Origin: Craspedostauros australis
Lineage: Eukaryota
Reading direction: 5' to 3'
Length of the DNA: 58,972 nucleotides
NCBI GenBank assembly: GCA_030167865.1
Contig: JALAGF010002723.1
Location: 1 to 58,972 of the forward strand
The position numbers were made by a program, and so were the translations under genes. Under the pieces are notes generated by a model. The model ran no database searches, was not told where the DNA came from, and saw only the letters and a list, made by a program, of their open reading frames with translations. Positions 7,775-43,707 of this stretch are shown one piece after another. Numbering within the stretch: position 1 is the stretch's first letter; every line of letters begins with the position of its first letter.

Positions 7775-9357
7775 TTGTTGTTTCGATTCAAGTGCTGATA
7801 GATGTTATCGATGGAGTTGTTGGCGTTGTAGTATCAGACGCCTGTTTCTGAAACCGTTCTCGACGTTTGAACGGCCGTCCACCGTTTCATCATGGTCGTT
7901 ATCAACGTCATCGTCCCCGTCGTCCCTGTCGTTGTCGCCACCGATCCAACGTTCAAGTTGCTGGGAGATGACGGACTTAATTAGTCTCAATACTAATATT
8001 CTTGAACGTCCACAAATGGCGCGCAATCCGAGAAAACACGGAATGGATGGGAGCCTCCAATACCAAGCGCAGAACCTGCACCATTCTGAACCCTCCTCTA
8101 CTTTCATTGCAAGGAACGACTTGGCTGCCTGTCGGACAGTGAACGGAATGCAGCATGTAGATTGTTTGTTGCAATGCTCTGTGGAGAGATCGCTTCAGTT
8201 TGGAATCGGTCTTCAGCTGCGAAGATCTCCGCAATCATCATTGCGTCACATGTGCATACTGGAGTAGAGCGCTCTTATCTAATATTGTCATGCTGTATAA
8301 TGGATAGGGGTATCACACTGACAACCCACTCGTATAGCAACCAAGTGCATCAGACTTCATTCCTCCATCTCCACTGTCATCTCTCTCTCTCTCCCTCTCT
8401 ACATTGCATCTCCAAGACTGTGGTCCAAACAAGGATCATTGAATCACCCTCCGATTTCGCGCCACCACAGCGTGGGCGAAGGTTGGGTCGCGAAGTGGTT
8501 GACGTCATTTTGTCCGAAACTCTGACGTCGGTCACGGTGACACATAATTCGTGGTCGGAAACAGCTGCAATCCAGTTGGGCCAGATGACTGTGAAGATGT
8601 CGAAGTGTCAACAGCTGCAAAAAGAACAGGGTGTGATGACTCGAACGAATGCGTTTTTGGGCGATGAAATTTTGTGTCGGTTGTTTTGGGATGACGCGAA
8701 ACAACGTATTGGCGCGGAACGTATCAACGAACAGATGTTATGTCGACGTGGGCAGGAGAATCGGCGCAATCAGGCGATGCAAGAAGGCCTGTGGACGCGA
8801 CCCACCATCACTCTGTCATCCCCCTTGTCGCGTCGCTTCCTCTTCCTCGGAGGTCCGAGGATCCTTCATGGCTTCTCGCGACGCAAAGAGGCAGACACAA
8901 CACGGCGCAAGAGGCAAGGGGGAGGGCAGAGCAAGACAGAACAAAAGACCAAGATCGCCACGGATCACACCACACACCCTTGCTCCGATCAAACCGAAGA
9001 GGTGCAGGCATCACAAACCCCGCCACCACCCACAACATTCTCCTTGTGCGCATCAAAGCAGAGGGGACAAAGAGGCACAGCATCAACAGAAGCTCATCGT
9101 GCAGCTGTCTGTTCGCAGTTGTGCACTTCACACCATCTGCTGCAAGAGCCCTTCGACGAGTCTCTGCCATTCTGTGTCTGTCGACCTCGATCTGCTCTGC
9201 TCCATTGTGACTCCACAAGTAGCTCGTGCTGGCATTCCTCCACCTCCATCGCAGAACGTTGTCAACGGAGCAAGATCTGCAATAGCATCACCCACAAACA
9301 TCACACACAAACACCACACAAACACCACATAGTTCCATCGTCACGCATCTCCGCGGC

Positions 9358-12300
9358 ATGGCATTCTGCTCCCAGAACAGAGGGATGAAGGCCGTATCCA
9401 AGCTGACGCAGGCGGGATCTTTGAGTCCTCACAACCGTCAGTACCACGAAGGCATGGAGGACATGGAAGGCATGGAGGGCATGGAGGGCGAGGAGAGCAG
9501 CAGCGGCAGCGATGGCGACAGCTACACGGGGTCATCCGACACGGGAACGTCCGACAGCTCCAGCGGGTACTCCAACACCGTCAGCTCCCTTGAGGAGCAC
9601 ATGTCGCCGCAGAAGCGAAGGGACATGATGGAGCAGGCGCTCAACGCGTACGACAAGGCGAATACCAAAGCCAAGCGCGCCAAGAACGCGAGATCGGCAT
9701 CGACGATGACCTCCAGGATTCCGACCGGCGAAGCCAGTCATGGGACTTCGCATGCGCACACCTTCGCGCATGATCAACCGCAGTACAAGAGCAAGATTCC
9801 GCAACCTGCGCATGCAACATCCTCGAGAGCCATCAGCAGCAGCAGCCCTGTCAAGACCAAGCCACGCGCCATTCCGCAGCAGCAACACAGCGTCCCGTGG
9901 GATGTGCAAGGCAAGTCCCTTGCGGAGGTCGTCCTCGAACGCATGGAAGAGAGCACTCCGCAGCCTTCGGAAGACGAGGGCGAACTTCAATCGCAGCAGC
10001 AGCAACTTCAAGCCCAACCACCGAACCCAACACGAAGCGCGCCGCAGCAGAAGAGTCGCGGGGAACAAGGGAATGGCGGTGGCGTGAGACTGACATCATC
10101 TCGTGACGCCGAGCAGCTCTCCGCGGATGCCAGAAAACCACCGTCCAATCAACAACCGCAGTCATCCGCCAAGGCACCGCACAAGGGCATCCTCACATCC
10201 CGCACCGCAGACATGCCATCTGTCCGGTCATCTCCGGCGGAAACGGCGGCATCTTTGTCCATCTCGCAGAGATCATCAGGCGATCCTTCCTCTGCCGCCG
10301 CCGCCGCCGCCGCTGGTAGCAAGGGGATGACGACCAATCGCAGCAAGGTCAAGGCCATCAAGGCCGCAGAGAAGGATCTGGGGATGGACGTCCAGTACTT
10401 GGCAGACGCTCTGGGAGTGCCGGCCTCATTCTTCGGTGTCGGGGTTTCCAAGCACGGTCGCGGCGCCAACATCTCGTCCAGCGCACCTGCATCCGTGGCA
10501 GGTTCCGTCAGCGCATCACCACCGTCTCAGCGTCCTCCATCCTCGGCTGCGCCAAACGCAACGCCATCCACGCCTGCCGCAGCGGCTGCTCCACAGCCAT
10601 CATCACCGGCGCAAGCCGGGGCCCAACAGAACCACGAACCCGTCAAGACGCTCACGTTGGCCGAAGCGCTCGGCGTGCCGCTCGAGAAGCCCTCTGCAAG
10701 CGAAGGCAGGGCAACGGTCGCCACGCCCGGCCGGACGCCTCCGAAGCAGACGCTTGCCAGGCGAGGCTCCATGGCAGCGGCCCTCGGTGTCACGGACCAA
10801 ATCAACCGCATCCGTGCTCAGAACAAGAAGAAGCAGATGCCACCTCCCAGCGCCGTCGCCAGCAGCTCCAGCTCCAGCGGCACCGATTCCGACAGCGATT
10901 CGGAGAGCGAGTCCACCGAATATGCCGAACTCAACACCAATCTGCAAGCCCAGCAGTACCAGCGCCGCAACAGATCCCTCTCCACTTCATCGCACACAGA
11001 GAGATCGGCCGACGGCTCCTACCAGTCGCGTTCCAGCGCCGCAACAGCACGCAGGGCGCAACCCAGATCGGCAGAAAGGCCCGCCATATCTGCAAGCAAC
11101 AGCAGCAAGACCAACACCAAAGCCTCCCGGCCTCAAGGTGGTGGAGCTGCTGCTGCTGCTGCTGCCTCCCGCCCAAAGCAAGGCAAGGAGAACGACATGG
11201 ACATCGACTACCTCGCGGCTGCCCTTGGTGTCCCGACATCGTTCTTCGATCTCAGTGGCAAAGCAACCTCAAAGGGAGGCCGCGGCAGACCAGGCCAGCA
11301 GCAGCAGCAACAGCAACCACCAAGACAAGAGCCATCCAGAAGGCCAGCTCCTGCCGCACAAACTGCAGGACCTCGAGGACAAGGCGCAACGACTGCCAGC
11401 CCGGGTGCCATGCCCAACAACCAAGCCGCAAGACGACCAGTCCCGCCCACGGCTGGTCGTGGAATCGCCACAGCGTCCCAGGCGCCCGTCAAGACCCTCA
11501 GTCTCGCGGAGGCCTTGGGCATTCCACTCGAGAAACCCACAACGGAACAGCAGCAGCCCGTCAGCAGGAATCCACAACGAAGAGTCCCTGCTGCCAGACA
11601 GACTGCGCAACAGCAACAGCCGCAAACTGCTGCTCCCAAGAAATCGTTATTCCAGCAAGTCATCAAGCATGCTGCAGAGTCGGAGGATGATGAATCCGTC
11701 TCCGACTCCGAATCCAGTGCCGACATGGGTGACGCATCCTCCTCGATGCCAGCACCGATCTTGGCACAGAACGGATCCCTCGCAGCCGCACTCGGAATGG
11801 GCATCGATCCTTCCTCCAGAGCGGCTCCCATTCGGCAAACCGCTTCGCCAATCAGGCCCCGCAAGCCCGTGGTTGCTGCAGTCAAGCGCACAAGCCATCT
11901 TTCACCCAACAAAGCTGGAGGCAAAAGCTTGTTCAGCACCATCATGCAGCGTGCCGAAAACGATGGCACCCAGTCGTCGACAAACGCAAACGCAACATCA
12001 CAAGTTGCTGCACCTCAAGTGGGATCGCTGGCGGCTGCTCTTGGCATGAGCGTCGATCCATCCGCCAAGGCAGCACCAATCCGCCAGAACGGCGCAGCGT
12101 CCAACAACAACAACAACAAGTCGTTGATGGATGTTGTGATGGGCAACATCGCAGATTCTGCATCAGATTCTGATTCAGATTCCGAGTCAGACTTTGAATC
12201 GTACGTTGATTCGATGATGAACAAGGCCACTGGCACAACAGCAACCAGCGTCAAGCCACAACTCGGTTCGTTGGCCGCTGCTTTGGGCATGTCGGTTGAT

Positions 12301-15300
12301 CCATCACCCCGAGCAGAACCCATCAAGCAGAAGTCTGGCACTTCGAAGTCCAAGACCAAGAAGAGTCTGTTCGATGGTATGCTGGCCAAGATAGGAGACG
12401 ACGGACATGGCCAGAGTGGCAACAAGACGCAGGCGTCTGCTTCTCAACCACAGTATGGATCACTGGCGGCAGCCCTGGGAATGAAGGTTGACACCTCCCC
12501 CAAGGCTTCGCCCATCAAGCAGGCGAAGCCATCTGCACAGACTCGCAAGCCGGCATCTTCCTTTGATCGCCCACAGTCTGGATCATTGGCCGCAGCGCTT
12601 GGCATGCAAGTAGATACATCCTCTCGTGCTGCTCCAATCAAGCAAGCCAAGCAACCAACATCGACAGGTCCTGGCGCGAAGAAGTCGTTGATGGAGATGG
12701 TCATGCAACGGGTCGCCGATTCTGATGACTCTGAAAGCTCCTACAGTGACGACAGCGACGACTACACAAGCGGCACAACAAGCCGTAGTGTGGCTGGTGT
12801 CAGTGCTCAACACGGATCACTTGCTGCGGCGCTTGGCATGAGCATCGATCCCTCGTCTACTGCGGCGCCCATTCGCACGGCCGACAATAAGTCAGCCGGC
12901 CCCTCGTCCTCCACCAAGGCTCAATACGACACCAAGACGCTCGTCTCGAGCGTACTGCAGCGCATCTCCGAATCACATGAGGAAGACGAAGACACAGGAT
13001 CCGACTCCGAATCCAGTGCCGACATGGGTGACGCATCCTCCTCGATGCCAGCACCGATCTTGGCACAGAACGGATCCCTCGCCGCTGCACTCGGAATGGG
13101 CATCGATCCTTCCTCCAGAGCAGCTCCCATTCGGCAAACCGCTTCGCCAATCAGGCCCCGCAAGCCCGTGGTCGCTGCAGTCAAGCGCACAAGCCATCTT
13201 TCACCCAACAAAGCTGGAGGCAAAAGCTTGTTCAGCACCATCATGCAACGTGCCGAAAACGATGGCACCCAGTCGTCGACAAACGCAAACGCAACATCAC
13301 AAGTTGCTGCACCTCAAGTGGGATCGCTGGCGGCTGCTCTTGGCATGAGCGTCGATCCATCCGCCAAGGCAGCACCAATCCGCCAGAACGGTGCAGCGTC
13401 CAACAACAACAACAAGTCGTTGATGGATGTTGTGATGGGCAACATCGTAGATTCTGCATCAGATTCTGAGTCTGATTCGGATTCCGAGTCAGACTTTGAA
13501 TCGTACGTCGATTCGATGATGAACAAGGCCACTGGCACAACAGCAACCAGCGTGAAGCCACAACTTGGTTCGCTGGCCGCTGCTTTGGGCATGTCGGTTG
13601 ATCCGTCACCCAGAGCAGAACCCATCAAGCAGAAATCTGACACTTCGAAGCCCAAGACCAAGAAGAGTCTGTTCGATGGTATGCTGGCCAAGATGGGAGA
13701 CGATGATGACGCTCAGAGCGGCAACAAGACACAGGCGTCTGCTTCTCAACCACAGTATGGATCACTGGCGGCAGCCCTGGGAATGAAGGTTGACACCTCC
13801 CCCAAGGCCGCACCAATCAAGCAATCCAGCGCGGTCACCAAGACAGCTCCGATGTCACCGAAAAGGTCGCTCATGGCGACAGTCATGCAACGGGTTGCCG
13901 ATTCTGATGATTCCGACGGATCTGACAGCGACTTCAGTGAACGGAATGGCGATGTTGGCACGAGCGGCGTCAACGCTCAGCACGGATCGCTTGCGGCAGC
14001 ACTAGGTATGAAAGTGGATCCATCATCCACCGCTCCAGCCGTCCGTCAAGAACCCGCTGGTCCCGATGGATTCGATAGCAACGAAAGTGAAAGCGAACAA
14101 GAGGAGAAGATGGAAGACCAGAGCCTTCTGGAGTGCATGCTCCCTCTCGGCGATGTCATGAAGATGCGTGTCACATCAGCTGCGCAGCCATCGTCTGGTG
14201 GGGCACCACCAGGCATGCGAAAATCCTCGTCCACCGCCAAGCTTGGCTCATTGGTGTCTGCGCTCGGGGCCCCGGTTGGTAGGGAACGTGTCGACATGGA
14301 CGCAGGCTCCAGCCACGACCGGGCTGGCAATCGCCGATCGAGTCCCACTGCACCATCCTCCTCATCATCGTCAGCTCCCAAACGAGACGCTTCGTCACCG
14401 AAGACTCCCGAACTTAGCCAGCGAAAGCAACATCAGCAGCAGCAGGCGCCGCCCGAAGAGCAGCGCAGGGCACAACCGCGTGGAAAAGAGTCGGCACAGA
14501 CCACAAACCGGGGTGTGCCGGCAGCGCAAGACCCAGCAGATTTGGACATCGATTATCTTGCGCAGGCTTTGGGTGTTCCCGCATCTTTCTTCGCATCGGG
14601 AAAATCCGGATCAAGCCCCAAGCCAGCGAGAGCAAAGCAACAACCCTCGAGCCAGCAAGCCGGAGGCTCGTCTAAGCAATCAACGCGAGATCTCAAGGAG
14701 CCCACCCATGATGACGACAAGCTTGCGGGTCAAAACCCAATGGCCACCGTGGACAGGAATGGAACCTTTTCATCAAGCGCAACTGCCACCACACGAGACG
14801 GAACTCTTCCACCCGAGCTGTCCGTGGTCACAAGGGCTCAAGACGGCTCACCTTCAGGCACGGGCGGGTCGCCAACAAGAACCGTCGGTTCCTACCTGAC
14901 GAATGAGACGGAGAGCAAGGTTTCTGTCATGGACAGCTTCTACGAGCACGTCGCCGAAGTGCGCAGCGAGATGACCGATCTCATCAGCGAGATATCGCAA
15001 ACGAAGCTCGACATGAGCGGCGTGAGGAAGGAAATCAACGTGCTTGAAAACCGCATCAAGACTCTCGAGACGGTGTCGACCAAGTCCGACGAAGACAACG
15101 CAGAGGATGTTGCTGCGATGCGAGAGTCGGAACAGACGCTGAAGACTGCCTTGATGGAGTCGGAGGCCAAGACAGCTGGCGTGAACAAATACAGCCAAAC
15201 ACTGGAGGAACAACTCTTCGCCAATTCCAAGAACTACTCTGACAGGCTGACGTCGTTGCACCAACAGCTGGCGACGTTCGAGCACCAGATCTCAGAGAAG

Positions 15301-18300
15301 TCCAGCAAGATCAAGAGGTTGGAATCGGACATTGACTCAGAACAACGCGTCAAGAAGGCCATTTCGGAAAAATGGATCCAGACCGAAGCCAAGCTGGAGA
15401 ACGTCTGCTCCGAACTTCAGCAATCTCGTGAACTCCTTCAGAAGGAGTACGAGGATGTCAAGAAATTGAAGCAGGGTCTGTTAGAAGACCGCGAGACTCT
15501 GAACACTCGCATGCAATCCAACGTCAAACCAGTTCCCATGGAATCCCACACGTCCGATATCCTGCGCAACATGGAATCCAACCTTCGTCGCGAAGGAGAA
15601 CGGAGGAAGAGTATCGCGGCGCGTTTGAAGGGAAGGTCTGGCGCCGGAGGCAGTGCTGCTTCGTCTCCCAGCAGCCCCGTCGCGAGAGATCTCGTTCGCC
15701 CAGCCAATGGAGTTGTCGTCGCTCCCGTCATGGTCGACGCAATGCACCACCCTACATCACCCTCCGCAACTCAATTCCGCGGCGATGTTTACTTGCCAGC
15801 ACTTGAGCGATCACGTGGGGCGCCGGTGCCGCAGCAGAAACCCAGAGGGAAGGACAGCAGCAGCAGCAGCGTTCCAGGGAAATCGCTTGGCGGCGCAGTT
15901 TTCACGAAACTGGCGACAAGCGATGCCCAATTCGCTGCGTCTTCCGCTCCGCCTGTCCAGACGAGAACTCTGGCAGAGGCACTTGGATTGCCACTCGAGA
16001 AACCGACGGCGGGCGATAACAATGATACGCCAACAACCCCGGCAATGCCCACGAAAACGGCTAGTTCGACAAAGCCATCGGTCGGAGCGAAATCGCTGTC
16101 CAATGTCGTGGTGCAGCGTCTCGCCGCGGGGCAAAGCAACGCTACAAGAGCGCAGCCACAAACCAAGACACTGGCAGAAGCGCTTGGAATGTCCCTTGAA
16201 GAGCCTCCTATTGTCGCTGAAAAGAGCGAACAGCAGGTTGAGCCCAGCTCGAAGTCACTGTCAAACGCTGTCGTCCAGCGGCTCACAAACCCAGCAGCGA
16301 TGTCCGCGTCACCTGCACCCAAGACGACCGCTCAGACCCAAACGCTGGCCGAAGCACTTGGTCTGACAGTCCAGGAGCCTGCTACTGCAAGCAGAGATGT
16401 GCCCAACCAAACCGCGACTCCTGCCGAATCAGCGAGATCCCTATCCACAACCGTAGTCCAGCGATTGTCCCATGGACGCAACGAAATTCCACGAGCGGCG
16501 GCACAAACGAAGACGCTTGCGGAAGCTCTTGGATTGCCGCTGGAAAAGGCAGACGACGCACCAGAGGCTCCTGCAAGCCAAGGCGGATCCGCCTCTAGAT
16601 CTCTCTCGAATGCCGTCGTCCAGAATCTTGTCACAAGTGATGGCGGCGGCATGAAGGTGGCCGCCACGGCTGCAACCGGTGGGCAGACAACCAAGACTTT
16701 AGCGGAAGCCCTTGGGCTGCCGCTCGAGAAACCTGAAGTGCGCAGCACCAATGCCGGCAGCGAAGCAGCACCAGCAAGCGCAACAATGGCAGCACCAGCT
16801 GGAAGGCCCAAATCACTTTCCACAGCTGTTGTGCAACGAATGTCCACAGCGGAAGGCGATCAGACTGCGCTGTCTGTGCCCAAGACGAGAACACTGGCCG
16901 AGGCTCTTGGACTGCCACTTGAAAACCCAGATGCTCTCGAGCAAAACACAACGAAACAAATGGCAACAACCAACCCCAAGTCATTGTCAGATGCCGTCGT
17001 GAAAAGACTCAACAGTCGCACACCCACCGTATCGGCGGCCACCATGCCATCAAATTCAGGCGAACGAAACGCAACGCCCACCAAGACGCTAACACTGGCC
17101 GAAGCTCTTGGATTACCCCTCGAAAGGCCAGTCCAAGATCAAGACCGCGAAGTTATGCCCGCACCCAAACCCGACAAGTCACTGTCAAATGCTGTCACAC
17201 AGAGGCTCGCCAACGGCACCGCTGCAACCCCAGCGGCACCAGCGGGCAAGACATTGACCTTGGCTGAAGCGCTGGGTTTGCCGCTAGAAAAGCCACAAGT
17301 CAGCAGTGTCGGCAGTGGTAGTGGACCAACCACGATGCCCGCACAACGCACAGCCAACACTCCAACATCCATGCCGCTTTCGGCTATCGTGATCGACAAC
17401 ATGGCTAGCGGGCAGGGGCGCAGCATTCAGGCCGCACCGCAGACAAGGACCCTTGCGGAGGCTCTCGGCATGCCACTCGAGAAACCAAGCGGTGTTGCTG
17501 CTGCAACTGCGGCTGCAACCAGAGCAACCCCTCCTCGCAGTATCACTCGCAAGGGGCAGATGAGTCCCAAGTCATTGTCAACTGCGGTTGTGCAGAGACT
17601 GGCGGGCGGCGCAGCGGCGGCGGCACCAACTAACCAACCACGGACGTTGGCCGAAGCGCTTGGACTGCCGATGGCAAGTTCGCCTGCGGTCCATGGGAGC
17701 GAAAAAGACCAAGTCAATCTGGCCCCATCGTCTTCGAAATCGTTGTCGAATGCGGTGGTGCAGAAACTGGCCGAAGGGGAGAGTGCAGGCAGAGCCACTC
17801 CACAAACCAGGACACTTGCCGAGGCTCTGGGTTTGCCCCTCGAAAAGACCGGTCCTCCCCCGAAGACAACCGCACCCATGGACGGCAACTCCAGATCGTT
17901 GTCGAGTGCCGTTGCACAAAGATTGGCAGACGGCACACCGGCAGCTACAACTGCTGCAACCTCAGGACTGCCCTCCAACAAGACGCTGACGTTGGCCGAA
18001 GCACTCGGGTTGCCACTCGAGAAGCCTTTTGTCGCCGCGAACGATGGACGTGAAAGGTCTATGCCAGTTGCGAAACCTACAAGCCATGACACGGCTGGTC
18101 CAGCATCGTTGTCCAACGTCGTCATGCGGCGGTTGGCTGATGGGCAACTGAGTCCCAGAAAGACATCCACTCAGACAAGGACACTGGCAGAGGCTCTCGG
18201 CTTGCCACTGGAGAAACCAGATGGCACAACTGCAAGTGGCAAGACAGAGAAGCCAAGTGCAGCGAAGTCACTGTCGAATGCTGTTGTGCAAAGGCTGGCC

Positions 18301-20622
18301 GAAACTCCAACATCAACATCAATATTACCTCCAGCCACGGCTGCTGCGAGCCAAACAAAGACCTTGGCGGAAGCGCTGGGGTTGCCCTTGGTAAATCCAC
18401 TCGTCGTGGCACAAACAGATGTTCGTGTGACAGCACCTGCAATGCCAGCGCCTGCAACTAAATCACTTTCGACGGCCGTGGTCGAGAGACTGGCTAGAGG
18501 CAAGGGCGGTGCACACGATAGCATGGCACAGGCCACACCAAGAACGAAGAGCCTGGCGGAGGCGCTCGGCTTGCCCATCGATCAAGGTGATGTCGGCACA
18601 GTGAAGAAGACAGAGAAGGCCAATGCTACTGCGACTACTTCAAGATCTCTTTCAAGCGCAGTCGTGGACAGACTGGCCTCCAACACGGCTTCGACTGCAC
18701 AATCACCAGTCAGCGCGCCAGCCAACAGTCAGACGAAGACGCTTGCGGAGGCTCTTGGCCTGCCACTCGAGCAGCTTGTTGTGGAGAGTGATGAAGATAG
18801 CGAGAGTGACAGCGATAGCGAAAGCGACAGTGATGATAGCACCGACAGTGGTTATGAAGGTATCAACGACGCTTCTGACCAGGAAGAGGATGCTCCTGAT
18901 GTCACTGATATAGCCGACGCTACGACCGACGCCAACGTCAACGCTACTGACAAGGATGATAGCACTGGCATTGGCGCAGTCCGAGATCCCGAAGACGTGG
19001 CATCCAAACCAAGCGATGGTATCGTTTCAGATAGTGCCACAATCGAAGATGCCGTCGCGGCTTCGACGGTTGATCCTCCTGGGGCCGTCACGAGAAGATT
19101 CAGTTCGCCTGTCTTCACGAAGAAGAAGCTCAGGATCCCAGCGATCCGACGGGAGCCGTCCGAGATTCATGACTCTACTGATGTGCACGACAACGGGAAC
19201 GCCGAGGACCCTGTTGCTTTGCTGGCAGCAGAGCTTCTGAGTCCACCCGAAGACGACACTGCGGCACCGGCGGAAGCCACCGAACCGCGCCCAGAGCCGA
19301 AGTCTTTGGCTGAAGTCGTCCTTTCAAGTGTTGCTGCACAGAAGAAGCATCCAGAAGCTGCAGGCAGCAACCTAGGTGGCCACACTCTGGCCCGGGCTCT
19401 CGGCCTGCCAGATCCAACAAGGGATGCTTCAGACGCAGCAGATCTCAGTTCCAGTGTGATTGAAGACGCCAATATCAAGGCCCGAGGTGGTATTGGAAGC
19501 ATCGCCGACGATGCTGTCAGTGATACGAGCGGCGAGGACGACGAAGGCAGGAGCGAGAGCGATTCCTCGTCATACAGCGACGAGTCCGACATGCCCATCA
19601 TCTACGCCAGACCCAAGACCGCCGATGGCAAGCCCCAAACTCTTGCCGAAGCGCTTGGCGTGAAGACAGAAATGGCATCCGAAAAGCAGATGCTGCAGAT
19701 TGAGGTGGACTTGCTGAAGAAGGAAGTCAAGGATGTCATTGGCAATGTTTCCACCATGAAGGAAGAGCTGGTGGCGTCAGTCGAGAAGAAGGAAGAGGAG
19801 TTGATGACGTCAAAGGAATCGCACGCAACGGTCTCGCGAGAGCTTGGTGCGATGGAAGGCAACGCAACGAGCCTCAGGAAGCAGAGAAACACGTTCATCG
19901 CGCTCGCGATGATCATCCTCGCAGCCGCATCCGCAATCTACTTCGGCGGTTTCGGTGCCGGTTTCCTCGGCTCATTCAAGACCGACGAAGTCGTGTTGGC
20001 GCCCTCTGATGGAATGGCGGCGTATGATCCAGCCGTGGCCAGACAGGTCGCACTCCGTCAGCGAATGGCGGCGTCCGCACGGCGCAGGAATATGGTGAAG
20101 AAGATGTCGGTCGCCACGGAGGCGCAGGGGTGTACTCGTGTGGCCCCAAGCGAACCAGCCATCGCCGTGCACGAAATTGCCGACAAGGCGTCGCCAGTTC
20201 AGGATGATGGAGCCGACAACCCGATTGCTTCGTCGCAAGGCCCTGGATTGGAGAAGATTAGCCTTGTCCAAGACGACGAGGAGAAGTCAGACGCAGATGC
20301 TGTGCCCAAGGCTGTCGAAGGCTCTGCCGACGAAGATAACCAGGCAGAGGAAGAGAAGGAGGAGGAACCAGATGCAACCGCTGTCGATCGCGAGCTGCAG
20401 CCACAGCCACAACACGTGGTTAACTTCCAGGCCCTTAAAAACGGCCGACAGAGCTTCATGAAGAAAATCACAAGGAGCCTGCCCAGGAGTCTGTCCAAGA
20501 ACCTGCCCAAGAAGCTGGGAAGGCAAATCGTCGCTGAGGTGAGGAAAACGTTGGCCGACAAGCCAATGGAGAAGCTTCAGGCTCTGGTGGAGAAGGAGAT
20601 CGAGGAGGGACTTTGGATGTAG
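9358..20622 (+). CDS. Giant (~3750 aa) intronless low-complexity repeat protein with a central coiled coil and a single C-terminal-region TM helix; function unknown
   Basis: Uninterrupted 11.2-kb ORF. More than 30 LAxALG motifs whose codons vary synonymously, which indicates selection at the protein level. Heptad-rich segment at ~14930-15630. Hydrophobic FIALAMIILAAASAIYFGGFGAGFLG at ~19894-19970. Start could be 9358, 9385 or a later Met. Confidence 0.85.
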   Translation: MAFCSQNRGMKAVSKLTQAGSLSPHNRQYHEGMEDMEGMEGMEGEESSSGSDGDSYTGSSDTGTSDSSSGYSNTVSSLEEHMSPQKRRDMMEQALNAYDKANTKAKRAKNARSASTMTSRIPTGEASHGTSHAHTFAHDQPQYKSKIPQPAHATSSRAISSSSPVKTKPRAIPQQQHSVPWDVQGKSLAEVVLERMEESTPQPSEDEGELQSQQQQLQAQPPNPTRSAPQQKSRGEQGNGGGVRLTSSRDAEQLSADARKPPSNQQPQSSAKAPHKGILTSRTADMPSVRSSPAETAASLSISQRSSGDPSSAAAAAAAGSKGMTTNRSKVKAIKAAEKDLGMDVQYLADALGVPASFFGVGVSKHGRGANISSSAPASVAGSVSASPPSQRPPSSAAPNATPSTPAAAAAPQPSSPAQAGAQQNHEPVKTLTLAEALGVPLEKPSASEGRATVATPGRTPPKQTLARRGSMAAALGVTDQINRIRAQNKKKQMPPPSAVASSSSSSGTDSDSDSESESTEYAELNTNLQAQQYQRRNRSLSTSSHTERSADGSYQSRSSAATARRAQPRSAERPAISASNSSKTNTKASRPQGGGAAAAAAASRPKQGKENDMDIDYLAAALGVPTSFFDLSGKATSKGGRGRPGQQQQQQQPPRQEPSRRPAPAAQTAGPRGQGATTASPGAMPNNQAARRPVPPTAGRGIATASQAPVKTLSLAEALGIPLEKPTTEQQQPVSRNPQRRVPAARQTAQQQQPQTAAPKKSLFQQVIKHAAESEDDESVSDSESSADMGDASSSMPAPILAQNGSLAAALGMGIDPSSRAAPIRQTASPIRPRKPVVAAVKRTSHLSPNKAGGKSLFSTIMQRAENDGTQSSTNANATSQVAAPQVGSLAAALGMSVDPSAKAAPIRQNGAASNNNNNKSLMDVVMGNIADSASDSDSDSESDFESYVDSMMNKATGTTATSVKPQLGSLAAALGMSVDPSPRAEPIKQKSGTSKSKTKKSLFDGMLAKIGDDGHGQSGNKTQASASQPQYGSLAAALGMKVDTSPKASPIKQAKPSAQTRKPASSFDRPQSGSLAAALGMQVDTSSRAAPIKQAKQPTSTGPGAKKSLMEMVMQRVADSDDSESSYSDDSDDYTSGTTSRSVAGVSAQHGSLAAALGMSIDPSSTAAPIRTADNKSAGPSSSTKAQYDTKTLVSSVLQRISESHEEDEDTGSDSESSADMGDASSSMPAPILAQNGSLAAALGMGIDPSSRAAPIRQTASPIRPRKPVVAAVKRTSHLSPNKAGGKSLFSTIMQRAENDGTQSSTNANATSQVAAPQVGSLAAALGMSVDPSAKAAPIRQNGAASNNNNKSLMDVVMGNIVDSASDSESDSDSESDFESYVDSMMNKATGTTATSVKPQLGSLAAALGMSVDPSPRAEPIKQKSDTSKPKTKKSLFDGMLAKMGDDDDAQSGNKTQASASQPQYGSLAAALGMKVDTSPKAAPIKQSSAVTKTAPMSPKRSLMATVMQRVADSDDSDGSDSDFSERNGDVGTSGVNAQHGSLAAALGMKVDPSSTAPAVRQEPAGPDGFDSNESESEQEEKMEDQSLLECMLPLGDVMKMRVTSAAQPSSGGAPPGMRKSSSTAKLGSLVSALGAPVGRERVDMDAGSSHDRAGNRRSSPTAPSSSSSSAPKRDASSPKTPELSQRKQHQQQQAPPEEQRRAQPRGKESAQTTNRGVPAAQDPADLDIDYLAQALGVPASFFASGKSGSSPKPARAKQQPSSQQAGGSSKQSTRDLKEPTHDDDKLAGQNPMATVDRNGTFSSSATATTRDGTLPPELSVVTRAQDGSPSGTGGSPTRTVGSYLTNETESKVSVMDSFYEHVAEVRSEMTDLISEISQTKLDMSGVRKEINVLENRIKTLETVSTKSDEDNAEDVAAMRESEQTLKTALMESEAKTAGVNKYSQTLEEQLFANSKNYSDRLTSLHQQLATFEHQISEKSSKIKRLESDIDSEQRVKKAISEKWIQTEAKLENVCSELQQSRELLQKEYEDVKKLKQGLLEDRETLNTRMQSNVKPVPMESHTSDILRNMESNLRREGERRKSIAARLKGRSGAGGSAASSPSSPVARDLVRPANGVVVAPVMVDAMHHPTSPSATQFRGDVYLPALERSRGAPVPQQKPRGKDSSSSSVPGKSLGGAVFTKLATSDAQFAASSAPPVQTRTLAEALGLPLEKPTAGDNNDTPTTPAMPTKTASSTKPSVGAKSLSNVVVQRLAAGQSNATRAQPQTKTLAEALGMSLEEPPIVAEKSEQQVEPSSKSLSNAVVQRLTNPAAMSASPAPKTTAQTQTLAEALGLTVQEPATASRDVPNQTATPAESARSLSTTVVQRLSHGRNEIPRAAAQTKTLAEALGLPLEKADDAPEAPASQGGSASRSLSNAVVQNLVTSDGGGMKVAATAATGGQTTKTLAEALGLPLEKPEVRSTNAGSEAAPASATMAAPAGRPKSLSTAVVQRMSTAEGDQTALSVPKTRTLAEALGLPLENPDALEQNTTKQMATTNPKSLSDAVVKRLNSRTPTVSAATMPSNSGERNATPTKTLTLAEALGLPLERPVQDQDREVMPAPKPDKSLSNAVTQRLANGTAATPAAPAGKTLTLAEALGLPLEKPQVSSVGSGSGPTTMPAQRTANTPTSMPLSAIVIDNMASGQGRSIQAAPQTRTLAEALGMPLEKPSGVAAATAAATRATPPRSITRKGQMSPKSLSTAVVQRLAGGAAAAAPTNQPRTLAEALGLPMASSPAVHGSEKDQVNLAPSSSKSLSNAVVQKLAEGESAGRATPQTRTLAEALGLPLEKTGPPPKTTAPMDGNSRSLSSAVAQRLADGTPAATTAATSGLPSNKTLTLAEALGLPLEKPFVAANDGRERSMPVAKPTSHDTAGPASLSNVVMRRLADGQLSPRKTSTQTRTLAEALGLPLEKPDGTTASGKTEKPSAAKSLSNAVVQRLAETPTSTSILPPATAAASQTKTLAEALGLPLVNPLVVAQTDVRVTAPAMPAPATKSLSTAVVERLARGKGGAHDSMAQATPRTKSLAEALGLPIDQGDVGTVKKTEKANATATTSRSLSSAVVDRLASNTASTAQSPVSAPANSQTKTLAEALGLPLEQLVVESDEDSESDSDSESDSDDSTDSGYEGINDASDQEEDAPDVTDIADATTDANVNATDKDDSTGIGAVRDPEDVASKPSDGIVSDSATIEDAVAASTVDPPGAVTRRFSSPVFTKKKLRIPAIRREPSEIHDSTDVHDNGNAEDPVALLAAELLSPPEDDTAAPAEATEPRPEPKSLAEVVLSSVAAQKKHPEAAGSNLGGHTLARALGLPDPTRDASDAADLSSSVIEDANIKARGGIGSIADDAVSDTSGEDDEGRSESDSSSYSDESDMPIIYARPKTADGKPQTLAEALGVKTEMASEKQMLQIEVDLLKKEVKDVIGNVSTMKEELVASVEKKEEELMTSKESHATVSRELGAMEGNATSLRKQRNTFIALAMIILAAASAIYFGGFGAGFLGSFKTDEVVLAPSDGMAAYDPAVARQVALRQRMAASARRRNMVKKMSVATEAQGCTRVAPSEPAIAVHEIADKASPVQDDGADNPIASSQGPGLEKISLVQDDEEKSDADAVPKAVEGSADEDNQAEEEKEEEPDATAVDRELQPQPQHVVNFQALKNGRQSFMKKITRSLPRSLSKNLPKKLGRQIVAEVRKTLADKPMEKLQALVEKEIEEGLWM
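11701..13808 (+). repeat. Intragenic direct repeat of ~806 bp: copy 1 at 11701-12506, copy 2 at 13000-13808
   Basis: Both copies begin tccgactccgaatccagtgccgacatgggtgacgcatcc and end atgaaggttgacacctcccccaaggc. They differ by scattered substitutions and in-frame indels (one fewer aac, one extra SE dipeptide). Confidence 0.95.
15880..18780 (+). repeat. Array of 16 degenerate ~60-aa protein repeats, each KSLSxAVVQRLA-linker-TxTLAEALGLPLEKP
   Basis: 16 LAEALG motifs counted from ~15961 to ~18733, each preceded by one SLSxxVVxRL-type motif. Confidence 0.9.
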
Positions 20623-21267
20623 ATCGTGACGCGGTACACATTACATAGTGCGTGAATGGGGGGCTTTGGGTACTGTCCGAGAACTACTGGCAGCACAACA
20701 GCAGCGACTGTGGCGACGTTCGGACAAGTACCATGCAAAAGCAGTAGGCATGAATGGAAGTGACATCATGAAAGGGGATTCAATGTAAAGTAGACAATGC
20801 ATACTTAGCACACAAGCACATACACAGTGGTGCCTGCGAGCATATCGGCACTAAAGTAGAGTACTCGTACGGTCGGGCAATCACAAGATGGTACTACTAT
20901 GGTAGGTATTGCCCAAGCGGCAGTGGCGTAATTGCATGGTATGTCCCGTGTGTTGGGAGAAAAGGACGAGCCCTCCTGTTCGCGTGTTGCATCTTCGCCT
21001 GGTAAAGGCTCATAAACGACGCAAACAGCCATAAGGCGCAGCGCGCATAAAGGACAGGGTCGCGATCTACAAACGCCGAGACAGAAACGGAATAGAGTAA
21101 AGCATTCGACTAATCTCGCATGCTCATAATTCGTGATATCTCCATTCGTTCATTCTGTTCATGGCACCGCTGTATGACCAGGGCTGGCTACCTCACATCC
21201 GTCTTTGCAAAGGGGTTGAGTTGGAAGGCATGCTGCGCACACCATGATGATGGCGCGGTGTTGGTGC

Positions 21268-24027
21268 TTAGTATCGCAGCCAGTGTGTGTGGCGGCGGAA
21301 CCAGGTGTAGTCTGGCAGCTCGTGGATTCCTCCCACGGCAGCGATGGCGAGGTCCTGGTCGTTGAAGAATTTGGATGCCGTTGCACGGACGTCGGCGGTG
21401 CTGACCGCGTCGATGCGGGAGAAGATCTCGGCTGGTGTCATGCGGCGTCCGTAGTTGAGGAGCGATCGGCCGATGTCCTCGGCGACGTTGTTGTTTCCGT
21501 CAAGGCTCATGAGCATGGTGGCCTTGAGGCTGACCTTGGCGCGGTCGACCTCGGCATCGGAGACCTCGTGGACCATGCGGACGAGGTTGTTCATGACGTA
21601 CCACATGGTGTCATCGACCTTGTTGTCCGGGGTGACGGCGTAGACTCCGAAGAGACCGGTGTCCTTGTAGCAGGTGTTGAATGTGTTGACGGAGAGGGCG
21701 AGCTCGTTCTCAGCGATGTCCTGGCAGAGCTGCGAGGCGTGGTTCTTGCCCAATCCGTGGGCGCGGTCGTAAGATCCCAAGATGTTCTGCATGAGCATGA
21801 GCGGGAAGGCGAATTCAGACGTCCAGGAAGCGGTTGGGAAGGCAACTGCCATGTGGGCGGTGTCGTCAGAGTTGAACTTCACGCTGGAGTTTTGAAGACG
21901 AAGATGACGAGCGGAGGATGTGCGGTGAGAGTGAGCAGATAGAACGGACGAGAGGGAGACCAAACAGGGATTGAGAAGCGGAAGAGGCGAAGCGATGCTT
22001 GAGTGAGCGGGTGGTGGGGTTGATGCGTCAAGGATTCCTGTTGCTGCGCAATTGCAAACCAAGAACATGTGTGAGCGTGCACTTACCGGTAGTCACCTCC
22101 GGTGAAGACGGCTGGCTCCATGGCGACTTCAACGCCGTCCTTGGGGGCGGATGGGAGGCCACCGAAGTGCTGATCGGCCAAGGTGCAGAGCTCCTCGTGG
22201 TTGACGGCTCCGGCTCCAGCGACGACCATTCGTGGAGCGGTGTACTGCGTGTTGACGTAGTTGACGAGGTCATCGCGGCTGAGACTGAGGATGTTCTCCT
22301 CCGAACCCAGGATGGTGCGTCCGAGGGAGGTTCCCTGGAAGGCGGTGCTGTGGAGGTGATCGAGCACGAGCTCCTCCTGATTCTTGTTGACCTCGGACAT
22401 TTCTCGCAGGATGACATCGCGCTCACGCTCAATGGCTTGCTCGTCGAGGGTGGAGTTGAGGAGGATGTCGGAGATGATCTCGACGGCCTTTCCGACGTCC
22501 TGCTTGAAGACCTTGGCGAAGTAGGCGGTCTGCTCGCGGGATGTGTAGGCGTTCAAGTGGCCACCCATGTTCTCGATCTCAAGCTCGAGCTGCTGCTGGG
22601 TGCGCTTGGAGGTTCCCTTGAAGGCCATGTGCTCCAGGAAGTGGGAGGTTCCGTTGTTGGCGGCGCTCTCGTAACGGGATCCAGCGGAGATCCAGACGCC
22701 GATGGTGGCGGTCTCGGCCCCGGCGACGGTCTCACTTCCGACGCGCAGGCCATTGCCGAGGGTTGTGACGTCCGTGGTTGGTGCACGGAGGACGTAGTCT
22801 GGGAAGGCCTCCGAAGTGGTGGCGGCGACAGCCGAAAGTGCACGGCTTGGCTGACTCTTGGCAGAGTGTGCCAAGAACTGTTGGCATTGTTTGTGTATGC
22901 GTGCGAAAGTTGAGATTGAGATTGCAGAGGGTGAGATGTGACAGGTCTTGAACACTTAACATTTTGCGATCGACGCTTGACGTTTGACTCTGCGGCAGGG
23001 CTGTTTCATCCGTTTCCAACAGGTAGAGTCTGGGCAGGCGGTTTATCCGCCTGTAGATTTGGATTCGATTCAGCTGAAGATGTGGTGGCGAGGGTGGGAG
23101 TGGATTGGATCTTTGCAGTTTGATCAGACCAAATGGAAGCTTGTTGTTGATCTACATCATAGGCATTGGCCTCTGGCTGCCAAGGCCTTGTCCAGGGTAT
23201 GGTTGCTTGGTTCAGCATCGTGGACAACTGAGAAGGTACGTATTGCCATCTATGTGTCCACACAGTTGCAGGTTGCGCCAGGTGGCACAATTTAGCATGG
23301 CATACTCGTAGTCTGATGCGTGTGATCCAACTCAACCCTCCTCTTTGTCCGCAGAGGCAGATGGAGAGGCCACCCCACTTCTGCTCAAGGGAAGAATCCA
23401 CCAACGACCATTGGCGTTTTGGAAGACATGTCCATCAATCACTGTGGACTTCGTTATGTGCGAGCTTTTGTGCTGTCGCCTCGCCTATCTCCAACTTGAT
23501 GGCAGCTTGGCGGAGCATTTAGTCTCGGAAATCCTCATGCTTTGTTATCTGCCATCGGTTCCATCGACATCGCATGTGATGGCACAGCACTGCTCTGATG
23601 GATGGAGGCTAGCAGATGGCTTGTAACCATGAATTGAACATATGACCATCATCCCGACCCAGAAAGCGTTCCTCGTGTGCTTTTTGGCTGTGCATTGGTC
23701 GGTTGGTTGGTTGTGACTGTTGACCTCCTGAGATCCACCACTTGCCACCGCCTCCATGGTCTGATCATGTCCCTGGCTCGCTGATGAATGATCATCTCGC
23801 GTGATTCATGCGTTCCTGCGCCGCTCTGGGCTGCATTGCATTGCATCCAACCACGTAACCAAACCACCCAGATCACCGAATCCGAATCCAACACTACCGC
23901 AAGCCAAAGCAGGCGATCAATCGACAGCTGCTCCATTTCCACGCTCACATGAAGGTGAACGGCCGCATCAAAACCTTGCTGCCTTCGCTCCTTCTCTTAC
24001 CTTGGAGATCGCGCTGCGAGAGGCCAT
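21268..24027 (-). CDS. PMPCB: Mitochondrial processing peptidase beta subunit (M16B); exons 24027-24001, 22877-22087, 21883-21268, ~477 aa
   Basis: HFLEH zinc motif, [46 protein letters not shown]. Exon 1 [15 protein letters not shown] splices in phase 0 to [18 protein letters not shown], giving a mitochondrial presequence. The second intron CG|GTAAGT...CAG|C restores the frame. Confidence 0.92.
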
Positions 24028-35877: not shown

Positions 35878-38800
35878 ATGACAACCACCAAGTCACCACC
35901 ATCAGACGCCTCCGGCTTCTTGGAGGCTCCGCCGTCGTTGCCGCGTGGGCGCTTGGCCTACGGATTCTGCGTGCGGGCATTGCGAAGACGGCTTTGGAAG
36001 GCCGTCCAGCATGAGAATGCGGACCTCATGCTGCGGCTCTACCAAGCGGACGAGCAGGACTTCACCGTCATCCTGCAGGAGGAGATCCAGGCGGAGTGGG
36101 ATCGATACAACGGCAATCTGCAAAACTCCATAGCGAAGCAGCAGGACCAGTCACGGTCGATGGCGATGAACGGCCATCGGAAGGGCAGCAAGGTGAGTGT
36201 ACCAATACCAATGTCGGCACGTTGGGGTGGTCTGCCTCCCATCTTACCACTATTTCCACTGTTCCACTGTTTCCACTCGCACTTTGTTGGTGTCGCCCAA
36301 TGTCCATCCATTCGCCCATCCGTGCGCCTATCCATTCGTCCATCCATTGCAACCACTTCGCCCACTCACTGGTGTACCTCTTCATTTGCAACTGCTTCTG
36401 CGTACTTGCACATACCAATGCCCTACCCAATCACAGCGTGGCCTTGGACTGTCATCCCAGCGCTCGAAGAGACGCAGCAAGGATGGCGATGGCATCAACG
36501 CACATGGAACACCATTCGTCAGCCGAGTCATTGCATGCATTCCAAACGAGAACGGACTCGATGCTGCAGATTCGAGCGCTGCCGCAGGTGCTCCAGGAAT
36601 CGGAGGCAAGCGGAGAATACAGGCATCCTCGGCACCGTCATCATCAACAACAACAGCGCAACCAGCTGGTTCATCGCACTTCAAACCTGCGGAACAATCA
36701 ACCGCGGTCGATGACTGGCCCCAATTTCGCAAAGGCCAGTCCATCCTCGAATTCGCATTGAGCCCATCCGATCCATTCACTCCTGATGACTTCCTGTCTC
36801 CGTACGACCCGTACACCGACGGGAGGGCAGGGACGGAGGACAGCGATGACGAGGCGGACTCCAACGATCGTGATTTCCGAAGCGGCTCACTCGCGGAACG
36901 ACGACGAAAGCGACAGATCGAGCGTCGGCAGCGGGCAGATGGGTCATCATCTTCGAACGGACCCCGCATGGCCTTCCGCCACTGGTGGGGTGGGGGCAAC
37001 AAAGGAAGCGACTTCGCCAGTAGTATCAACTCCGCGTCACGCCAAGCGTTCACCACGGGCCCGTCGCTCAATGGACCAGGACAATTCGACTCTGTTCAAC
37101 TCAGCATGAATGGTAGCAACCTCTCCGGGGACCACAATGGCGGACACGATGTGTACTGGACGACCCCTTTGCACGAAGCCGCGCGGTTGGGGTCCGGAAA
37201 GCTCATGCGATGGATGCTCGAACGAACAGTCGACGAGGCGGACCCAAACATCAAGAACGGACGAGGCCGAACCGCTCTGCACATGGTATGCGGAGGCATG
37301 ACGACGTACGAGAGGGTCTTTCAGAAATCGACCGCCAAGGGCAGATCAGGCTCCGTCAAAAAGATGGCGACGCACGCTGAGAATGGAGACCAATCTGAGG
37401 CAACACAAAATGGTGGTGACAGGCACACGGCGATGCAAACGCCAGTTGTTGGCATCGGTATTGGCATTCCCAGCATCCCACCTCATCACAACAACATCAA
37501 TGATATGGATTCGAAAGCCAAAAAGTCCAGATCAGTGGGCGGCAAAGCGAAGAAGGCCATGAGCCGCATGTTCAAATCCATGCGCTCATCCACGAAATCG
37601 AGGCAGGCGCAGAAGGGGGACGGCACCGAAAGTGATGATCTGATCGACGACCCGTTGGATGCAATCTATGGACCAACTCCGGCACGCATTATCAGAGATG
37701 CTCGCACCAGCAAACGCAAGCAAAAGCGCAAGGAGAAACTGCGACGAATCGAAGCCGACCGCATGGATGCCGTCCTTACGGTCCTTTCGTGGACTCAGCA
37801 GGCAGCGCAAGCGTCGAACGGTGCGGCCGCGCTTCCCGCATCAGCGGGAGGCCTGATGGATTCGGATCCCTTCCATCAGGGCAACGACTTTGGCGCAAGC
37901 AACGGTCCGCCTTCCGTCAACGCTGTGGACAAACTGGGCAGAACGGCGTTGCATTACGCCGCAGAGACTGGACGTGGTGATATCTGCCGATCCATCCTCT
38001 CCTCAACCTTCGGTGTCCTCCTGACCATTGTCGATGACGTCGGCGCACGCACCCCTTGCGAGTTGGCCGCGATGCATGGGCATCAAGAACTCACAGCGCA
38101 TCTCGAGGCAAGGGCCTTGCTGTACACCGACCCGTACGGAATGGAAGATGAGTACTCCGGATGGAACGTCGAAGAGGAGTACGGCTACGACGACGCGGGC
38201 AACTACCTCGTGTATGATCCGTACGAAGGACAGATAAGACAAACGCTCGACGAGGTGCTGGCGCGAAAGCGGAAGAAGCTCGCAGCTCCGTTTGGTTGGT
38301 TCGTCACCTTGGACATGGACCAGGTGAATGCGGAACGTCAAAGGCGGTTGGATAAGATTCGTCGGTACATTTTCTCGTACGTTCACAAATGGCATGCCCA
38401 GCAGATGTCAAAGATCGAGGCCAAAGCGGCCGCGAAACTTGCTCAGGACAGGTCCGAAGACATGGAAATCATGGCAGCGATCGCGGCGTTGACCAATGAA
38501 GAAAAGAAGCCACCGCCATCTGCTATCGCATCGTCGGCACCACTGACAGCAGCAGCGCATAAGAAGCCAAGTGCGAAACTAACGAAGGGCGTTGCAGTCG
38601 GCGTTGGCGTGAAGAAGTTGCAACCAGGGATGCACGTGGCAATTGGTGTCGCTGCTGGCGAAGATAATAGCGATGGTGGTAGTGACGATGACGACGATGA
38701 TGATGTGAAACCTCGTGCCGCGAAGAAGAAGGCGGCGCGTGCAAAATTCAATGCCAAAGGCACCGGCGAGGAACAAACAACCACCGGTGGTGACAGTGAT

Positions 38801-41800: not shown

Positions 41801-41896
41801 AACGCATCTGCCATGTGGGCCTGCGATGCCTGCACCTACATGAACTCCGATGGTGGCCGTCGTTGTGCGATGTGTGGCACAGGGCGCTCACGCTGA
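35878..41896 (+). CDS. Ankyrin-repeat Ariadne-type RBR E3 ubiquitin ligase (ANKIB1-like) with C-terminal RanBP2/NZF finger; exons 35878-36192 and 36437-41896 (alternative in-frame acceptor at 36461), ~1920 aa
   Basis: Ankyrin motifs TPLHEAA, GRTALHMVC and GRTALHYAA. RING1 CMIC...CVHGFCKPC...CPHHEC, IBR FCPHPGC...HRFCFEC...HWPVSC, RING2 PCPKC...KNDGCNHMTC...HEFCWIC. Ariadne helices RFLHHFTR...ELLECRSVLQHSY. WACDACTYMN...CAMC at the C-terminus. Donor AAG|GTGAGT at 36193 is phase 0. Confidence 0.88.

Positions 41897-42412: not shown

Positions 42413-43707
<1,295 letters not shown>

Follow-up and report, generated by a model that had tools for sequence, protein, structure and literature searches.

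A string of alternating short motifs on the disordered arm of a giant, predicted single-pass membrane protein of the diatom Craspedostauros australis

What does a diatom protein do with sixteen copies each of two short motifs, set out in strict alternation along one reading frame? The stretch analysed here (the window) is 58,972 nucleotides long and is the entire contig JALAGF010002723.1 (G000:C2723) of the 66-Mb C. australis genome, assembly GCA_030167865.1. The motifs lie in a giant open reading frame (ORF) on its forward strand, whose product is predicted to be a giant, mostly disordered, single-pass membrane protein; its start agrees with the N-terminus of the Stauroneis constricta orthologue P0004, and own-genome searches found no second copy of the gene. 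The array of paired motifs is real, old and selected. We favour, with a probability of roughly 0.55, the reading that its short linear motifs are docking sites, strung together for multivalent binding along the disordered arm of a type-II membrane protein that raphid diatoms possess in giant form. No prior description of the family or of the motif was found among profiles, structures or papers, and the architecture is of a known kind.

The two motifs, A (KSLSxAVVQRL) and B (TxTLAEALGLPLE), make up the second of two arrays in the protein, array 2. A first-pass annotation made from the letters alone had claimed sixteen A-B units in strict order with varied linkers and synonymously varied motif codons, followed by a degenerate seventeenth pair. 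A motif scan and an alignment agree: 16/16 pairs alternate (the first K of the A motifs is at 15880 in the first unit and at 18643 in the last, and the last B ends at about 18777), and the seventeenth pair is present as well (Table 1). LAEALG is invariant in all 16 units. Linkers from A to B are 12–25 amino acids (aa) long, never less than 12 and somewhat shorter than those from B to A (16–30 aa); the period is 52–71 aa, and the putative helices are spaced 26–40 aa apart. The fraction of disorder-promoting residues in the array is 0.77 and that of aromatic residues 0.3%; A is net positive in 15 of the 16 units, and the B core has a charge of -1 in every one. Over all pairs of the 16 units the proportion of synonymous differences (pS) is 0.75 in both A and B, i.e. 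saturated. The proportion of nonsynonymous differences (pN) amounts to 0.25 in A and 0.11 in B, whereas four anchored flanks of the linkers reach 0.57–0.65 and linker codons after shuffling 0.68. Linkers cannot be aligned with one another beyond the level of shuffled linkers (mean local score 34.4 vs 35.2). The proposal of an old array under purifying selection on the motifs only is upheld by these values, and the same pattern of pN and pS rejects neutral repeat expansion. Conservation itself was used to place the motif limits, which makes the contrast between motifs and linkers circular in part, but the objection is removed by the conservation of the motifs in relatives from other species. 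Such alternation would have a chance of 3.3e-9 under random order, a value that is trivially explained because tandem duplication of an A-B cassette suffices. In the 66-Mb genome the pattern TLAEALG has 32 matches, of which this gene accounts for 17 and a second giant ORF for 14, with one elsewhere, and the reversed pattern, used as a control, has none; the single match, on contig C3359, lies inside none of the eight listed ORF translations of at least 150 aa.

Is the alternation a rule or a habit? It was scored in the relatives described below with A and B profiles trained on P0001, P0004, P0006 and P0009, which give at most 0.2 false matches per shuffled protein. The annotation had taken alternation to be obligate, and some orthologues do keep it strictly: S. 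constricta in 11 of 11 pairs, Nitzschia inconspicua (outside the training set) in 40, and P0006, from a Bacillariaceae metagenome-assembled genome (MAG), in 14. The N. inconspicua array is nearly homogenised, unlike the old array 2. As a rule, however, alternation fails. B follows B at 18 steps in P0005, 25 in P0007 and 15 in P0010, and the close B-B intervals of these proteins hold an A-like segment in 0/18, 1/26 and 0/15 cases, respectively; A follows A three times in P0009, twice in P0012 and once in P0008; and the C. australis protein itself has six B-B steps. Columns 1–7 are common to A and B, and over the first 6–8 columns their cross-profile scores are in the top 2% of positions. The simplest reading is that one short ancestral helix gave rise to several variants, any of which can serve by itself, and that arrays grew as whichever cassette was present became duplicated.

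The other giant ORF with TLAEALG matches (G000:C3106:3358-18253; L011, L009 and L010; 4964 aa from the first Met) has no membrane helix. It holds 14 of the 32 genomic matches and the exact 13-mer B consensus, and it alternates this consensus with TLFDALG, a hybrid that joins the start of A' (the form of A in array 1) to the end of B. There are about 40 TLFDALG/TLAEALG motifs in all, part of them in a recent tandem array of 80-aa repeats. This sharing of the exact consensus, paired with another motif, indicates that the motif moves as a unit. No Pfam match was obtained in the three parts of the C3106 frame that were scanned, and no coiled-coil homology was found. An earlier array in the same protein is made up of repeats of roughly 72 aa with helices of the TLVEAAKRAKAK type, and a C-terminal region is present too. 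By eye, it and its neighbour L010:3144-5618 contain several copies of a domain of about 45 aa, P.DY..AC..LI ... ELY.YL.Q.Y, which has no Pfam match in the parts scanned.

We take B to be a S/T-x-x-E capping box with a Gly C-cap, and the L-x3-V-x2-R spacing of A presumably recalls the first RPEL helix, as A' recalls the WH2 helix, a likeness at the level of sequence. For one unit AlphaFold2 placed a helix at A and another, of four residues, at B, with no fold predicted confidently (predicted template modelling score, pTM, 0.28), and for three units six separate helices without packing (pTM 0.14); its alignments were shallow and its confidence low, so that these models are weak evidence. A complex prediction of one unit with the organism's own actin (from the second exon, one codon containing an N) scored 0.00 twice, with the alignment unused and the controls unfolded, and is evidence neither way. 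Actin-family matches in the genome are on G000:C1467 (three), C1727, C168 and C2163, some of them cut by contig ends. The annotation had also suggested that A and B fold together as a helical hairpin. The strict alternation in the C. australis, S. constricta, N. inconspicua and P0006 proteins, and the lower limit and relative shortness of the A-to-B linker, would suit a two-helix unit, but as an obligate rule it is largely refuted and is the least probable of the readings weighed here: the A-to-B linkers are long and freely diverged, the modelled helices stand apart, B-only or A-A runs occur in six relatives, and in C3106 the partner of B is not A but a motif that resembles B. Obligate packed helix pairs and constrained loops, the marks of a folded solenoid or hairpin repeat, were not seen in the linkers, the motif order or the AlphaFold2 models.

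A search profile built from 32 units (array 2 and the seventeenth pair supplied 17, array 1 supplied 7 of its 10 pairs, and C3106 supplied 8), run against 1.84 billion representatives, found 21 relatives at E<=0.001. The four that carry taxon names all belong to raphid pennates (Stauroneis constricta, the Bacillariaceae MAG, Nitzschia sp. RCC80 and N. inconspicua); because only these 4 of 21 are named, specificity to raphid diatoms is not established. No named protein of Phaeodactylum, Seminavis or Fragilariopsis is among the 21 matches, in a range that is poorly sampled. The closest relative clusters with a S. constricta protein of the MMETSP transcriptome project, which indicates that the gene is expressed in that species. 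This kinship makes a raphid pennate the probable source of the window. A sequencing run guessed to be RNA gave two mismatch-free contigs, which span 19623-19886 and 20106-20815 and leave the array uncovered, and was not used as evidence of expression. The S. constricta orthologue is collinear, with 36–67% identity over most regions and 26% in the membrane helix. Long family members have in common array 1, the motif at the end of the coiled coil (present in 11/11 tested), the membrane helix and a terminal helix with an acidic-Trp motif; an A-B array behind the coiled coil is found only in the C. australis protein and S. constricta (11 strict pairs). P0007, P0010 and two members of the P0010 cluster end seven residues past the coiled-coil motif and have no membrane helix. 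P0007, P0010, P0025 and P0026 look like a soluble subfamily with a B-only array and the coiled coil; a search of the C. australis genome with P0010 found no such paralogue, which is not proof of absence. Two Bacillariaceae members (P0006 and P0027) have N-terminal ankyrin repeats that the C. australis protein lacks. P0024, a protein of 615 aa, has QTLAEALGVKTE repeats that resemble the last B motif of the C. australis protein (19639) and is otherwise different, perhaps representing a third family that uses the motif.

Other searches added little. A pattern scan of metagenomes gave six loci, three of them family fragments and three chance matches in 31-aa frames, two of the latter on contigs with bacterial-type genes. 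Word-indexed protein searches returned one protein each; the third, limited to 337–2000 aa and crowded, carries little weight as to range. Nothing meaningful was found for the protein in Pfam, the PDB or the ESM Atlas: a PDB profile search gave eight weak matches (best E 0.12) and a PDB sequence search was at chance level, and in the ESM Atlas the array had no usable match and the C-terminal part a single one, of 0.76, that belongs to no family. At E<=1 neither the whole protein nor either array matched WH2, RPEL or any other actin-binding family of Pfam, and KASH, spectrin and calponin-homology families gave no match. Matches of YycC, GGDEF_2 and E3_binding to array 2, and of ToxA_N, SIKE and DUF6825 to P0027, were set aside as summed-repeat artefacts with no passing stretch, and P0013 bears the source name "TPX2", for which Pfam gives no support in P0027, a member of the same cluster. 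No published description of such a protein was found among titles and the starts of abstracts (supplementary tables may list these genes by identifier), and a literature search with five motif strings returned only unrelated papers.

The remainder of the protein is laid out in Table 1. The first-pass annotation made no mention of array 1 or of the lone B copies. The linkers of array 1 are acidic and rich in Ser and Asp, and its type of array is common to the C. australis protein, Nitzschia and further relatives. It contains a recent in-frame duplication of about 820 bases (11701-12521 vs 13000-13823; 95% DNA identity). C motifs are present in 8 of the 12 proteins scanned; the strict RLERIKAKA..ELG basic-helix pattern has no match in the C. 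australis protein. The coiled coil is the best-conserved region (67% identical to S. constricta) and ends in the family motif E..R.K....RLK, and aa 3421–3505 are 59% identical to S. constricta. Six relatives have an equivalent of the transmembrane helix, with hydropathy scores of 1.57–2.66, and the side N-terminal to it is the more positive in five of the seven proteins and equal in the other two. Counted from the end of the helix, the tail is 223 aa long here and 181–335 aa in relatives, and its terminal Trp aligns in 6/7 proteins (P0006 is partial and ends earlier). The tail is probably luminal or extracellular. In a test of hydropathy only, none of six N-termini, those of the C. australis protein and five relatives, has a hydrophobic segment that could be a signal peptide or plastid presequence (maximum 9-residue hydropathy 0.26–0.69). 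Hydropathy and charge thus suggest a type-II topology with both arrays in the cytosol.

Table 1. Features of the giant protein gene, in window coordinates
Feature	Position	Strand	Remarks
Giant-protein ORF	9358..20622	+	3754 aa; first ATG at 9358 within open frame 9286-20622
Lone N-terminal A motif	9913..9945	+	Also in P0004
Basic helix, then C motif (LAxALGVPxSFF)	10342..10434	+	Helix is a degenerate RLERIKAKA..ELG, by eye
Lone B motifs	10654..10692, 11500-11538	+	TLAEALG..PLEKP type
Further C motifs	11212-11247, 14557-14592	+	LAxALGVPxSFF type
Array 1	11641..14031	+	10 A' (KSL[FM]xxV[MI]xR) / B' (GSLAAALGMxVDPS) pairs and one extra B'
Coiled coil	14953..15642	+	Weak coiled-coil Pfam matches, all below cut-off
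Array 2	15880..18777	+	16 alternating A/B pairs on Ala/Thr/Pro/Ser linkers
Acidic disordered spacer	18784..19299	+	Net charge -45 over aa 3143-3420
Seventeenth, degenerate A-B pair	19300..19410	+	A at 19300, B at ~19381-19410; counterpart in P0004
Last lone B motif, then short predicted coiled coil	19639..19870	+	Q[IM]E[VM]xL type; precedes membrane anchor
Single predicted transmembrane helix	19894..19950	+	Hydropathy 2.16, next best 1.24; basic residues before it
C-terminal tail	19978..20619	+	Basic helix and conserved terminal helix ending in acidic-Trp motif

Several of these results argue together for docking motifs: the motifs are conserved at saturated synonymous sites while the linkers are at random level; 21 proteins carry the same motifs, in copy numbers that vary freely (11, 14, 16 and 40 pairs); B-only and A-A runs occur, and A and B match each other's profile; C3106 reuses the B motif, and the AlphaFold2 helices are isolated on coil; and the six N-termini show no signal peptide, with one hydrophobic helix near the C-terminus. 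A and B would then be variants of a single short helix, [KRG]-[ST]-L-x-x-A-[VL], acting as stickers on spacers, of which A would run for another turn and end in Arg or Lys and a hydrophobic residue, and B would stop at Gly and continue as an extended tail. Each motif may bind weakly and fold on binding, and with 16–40 copies the array would hold a cytoplasmic partner of repetitive or polymeric build by avidity. Oligomerisation of the protein may come from the coiled coil, and the transmembrane helix and conserved tail would fix it in one membrane as a long tether or scaffold. Alternation would follow if A and B were duplicated together as a cassette while both were under selection; either motif can stand alone. 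In this account the motifs, their mode of selection, the family, the architecture and the non-obligate order are shown, and helicity, topology, binding, avidity and the role as a tether are inferred. Several points weigh against it. The docking role is read from the sequence, and the topology draws on hydropathy and charge only. The motifs do not show an amphipathic character: with a hydrophobic moment of 0.325, A is level with its shuffles (0.326; p about 0.5), and B exceeds its own only marginally (p 0.05). The capping position of B' holds Ala in 59 of 159 matches, versus Glu or Asp in 79. The membrane anchor is not universal in the family, because P0007 and P0010 stop without a helix, and the persistence of strict alternation in four lineages leaves room for a functional preference for pairs.

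Among other explanations, the motifs might be homotypic stickers, A binding B or B binding B in trans, that form a condensate or meshwork on the membrane, possibly with the C3106 protein and with no separate ligand. The charges of A and B are in keeping with this, the second, anchor-less giant protein has the same B motif, and PYCO1 uses a repeating motif for homotypic condensation according to PMC10288592. The stickers described there are aromatic, however, and array 2 is nearly without aromatic residues; AlphaFold2 shows no packing among three units, and the invariant small-residue LAEALG core seems better suited to a pocket of fixed shape. We regard homotypic binding as unlikely. A little less likely again is a cytoskeletal filament as the partner, a special case of docking in which the protein would connect raphe actin or its myosins to the secreted adhesive through the plasma membrane, or the cytoskeleton to the silica deposition vesicle (SDV). 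All four named relatives are raphid pennates, the putative RPEL-like and WH2-like features of A and A' would suit such a partner, and ankyrin repeats, as in the two Bacillariaceae members, are a domain type of the dAnk silica-patterning proteins; against this, actin-binding families are absent from the Pfam results at E<=1, and 17 of the 21 relatives carry no taxon name.

A narrower form, and a long shot, is that the family is the transmembrane coupler of diatom gliding, with arrays that grip raphe actin bundles or myosins and an outer tail that holds the adhesive. The membrane link between raphe actin and secreted adhesive is described as unidentified or unproven in PMC10547550 and PMC11420354, and the C. 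australis protein has the general build of such a link. If true, the coupler would be a raphid-specific type-II plasma-membrane protein with a helical binding motif that lacks a family profile and is shared with a second giant cytosolic protein. Slightly more improbable still is direct lipid binding, by which many short helices on bilayers would bridge a gap and tether or shape a second membrane. In favour are the positive charge and small polar residues of A and the length and membrane anchor of the protein, but there is no excess hydrophobic moment, B has only about two turns, and the strict invariance of sequence exceeds what lipid binding usually seems to need.

Giant KASH proteins (nesprin-1/2, ANC-1, MSP-300) have a repeat-bearing N-terminal arm, a luminal tail of up to about 30 aa and a PPPX-type end. 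The C. australis protein is like them in its giant N-terminal arm, lack of a signal peptide, single C-terminal helix and conserved extreme C-terminus, and unlike them in the length of its tail (and of those of its relatives), in having no PPPX-type end and in its disordered arm. WH2 and RPEL arrays are likewise tandem short helices in disordered chains with a hydrophobic/Arg spacing similar to that of A; the motifs here lack an LKKT-like or RPxxxEL-like second half and have no Pfam match. Pyrenoid Rubisco linkers are disordered, with helical stickers 20–120 residues apart (PMC11570498), and PYCO1 has two motifs per repeat (PMC10288592). The C. australis protein resembles EPYC1, CsLinker and PYCO1 in being a disordered chain with short repeated helical motifs, and its disorder and helix spacing are of that kind. 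It differs in having no plastid-targeting signal, in its size, and in its coiled coil and transmembrane helix; the KWSP and GTGYNP motifs quoted for PYCO1 do not resemble A or B, and the C. australis protein has no aromatic stickers. By analogy, it may work in outline like the pyrenoid linkers and be built like a giant KASH protein, departing from each in one defining respect. The silicalemma proteins SAP1-3 (PMC5647440) are also diatom single-pass proteins proposed to link membrane to cytoplasm, but they carry a signal peptide and place the N-terminus in the lumen and a short conserved tail in the cytosol, a topology that is the reverse of the one predicted here. The dAnk proteins have in common with the two Bacillariaceae members their ankyrin repeats. 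Adhesive trail proteins are also very large, repetitive and partly disordered, some of them found only in raphid diatoms; all eight have signal peptides and are secreted according to 10.1101/2023.03.06.531300, unlike the C. australis protein with its membrane helix.

The other genes in the window are ordinary eukaryotic ones and include those for a cation/proton antiporter, TRM5, an M16 peptidase, CDC73, clathrin light chain, ATG9, an ankyrin-IBR ligase, importin alpha and a UbiE methyltransferase. The M16 peptidase gene (21268-22955, reverse strand) is convergent with the giant gene, is in two frames that are likely split by an intron, and probably encodes the beta subunit of the mitochondrial processing peptidase. 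The ankyrin and IBR/Ariadne ubiquitin-ligase gene is at 36197-41896 (forward strand), with clathrin light chain (28882) and ATG9 (31305) close by. A frame of 1141 aa at 45949-49374 (reverse strand), with a bHLH-MYC_N match below cut-off and an N-terminus that is Myb-like by eye, is probably a transcription regulator, and an imperfect pentanucleotide tandem array of 32 copies lies at 43196-43358.

A family of diatom proteins is thus defined, together with a short motif of which two giant proteins in the same genome make use, and with motif arrays that have expanded independently to 11–40 pairs across species. The family is a candidate for a long membrane-to-cytoplasm linker in raphid diatoms, which may act in the transmission of gliding force or in the positioning of the SDV, and for which a single motif would provide a mutational handle. 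Even with a mundane partner, it would offer a natural series on the evolution of valency and motif order in disordered scaffolds.
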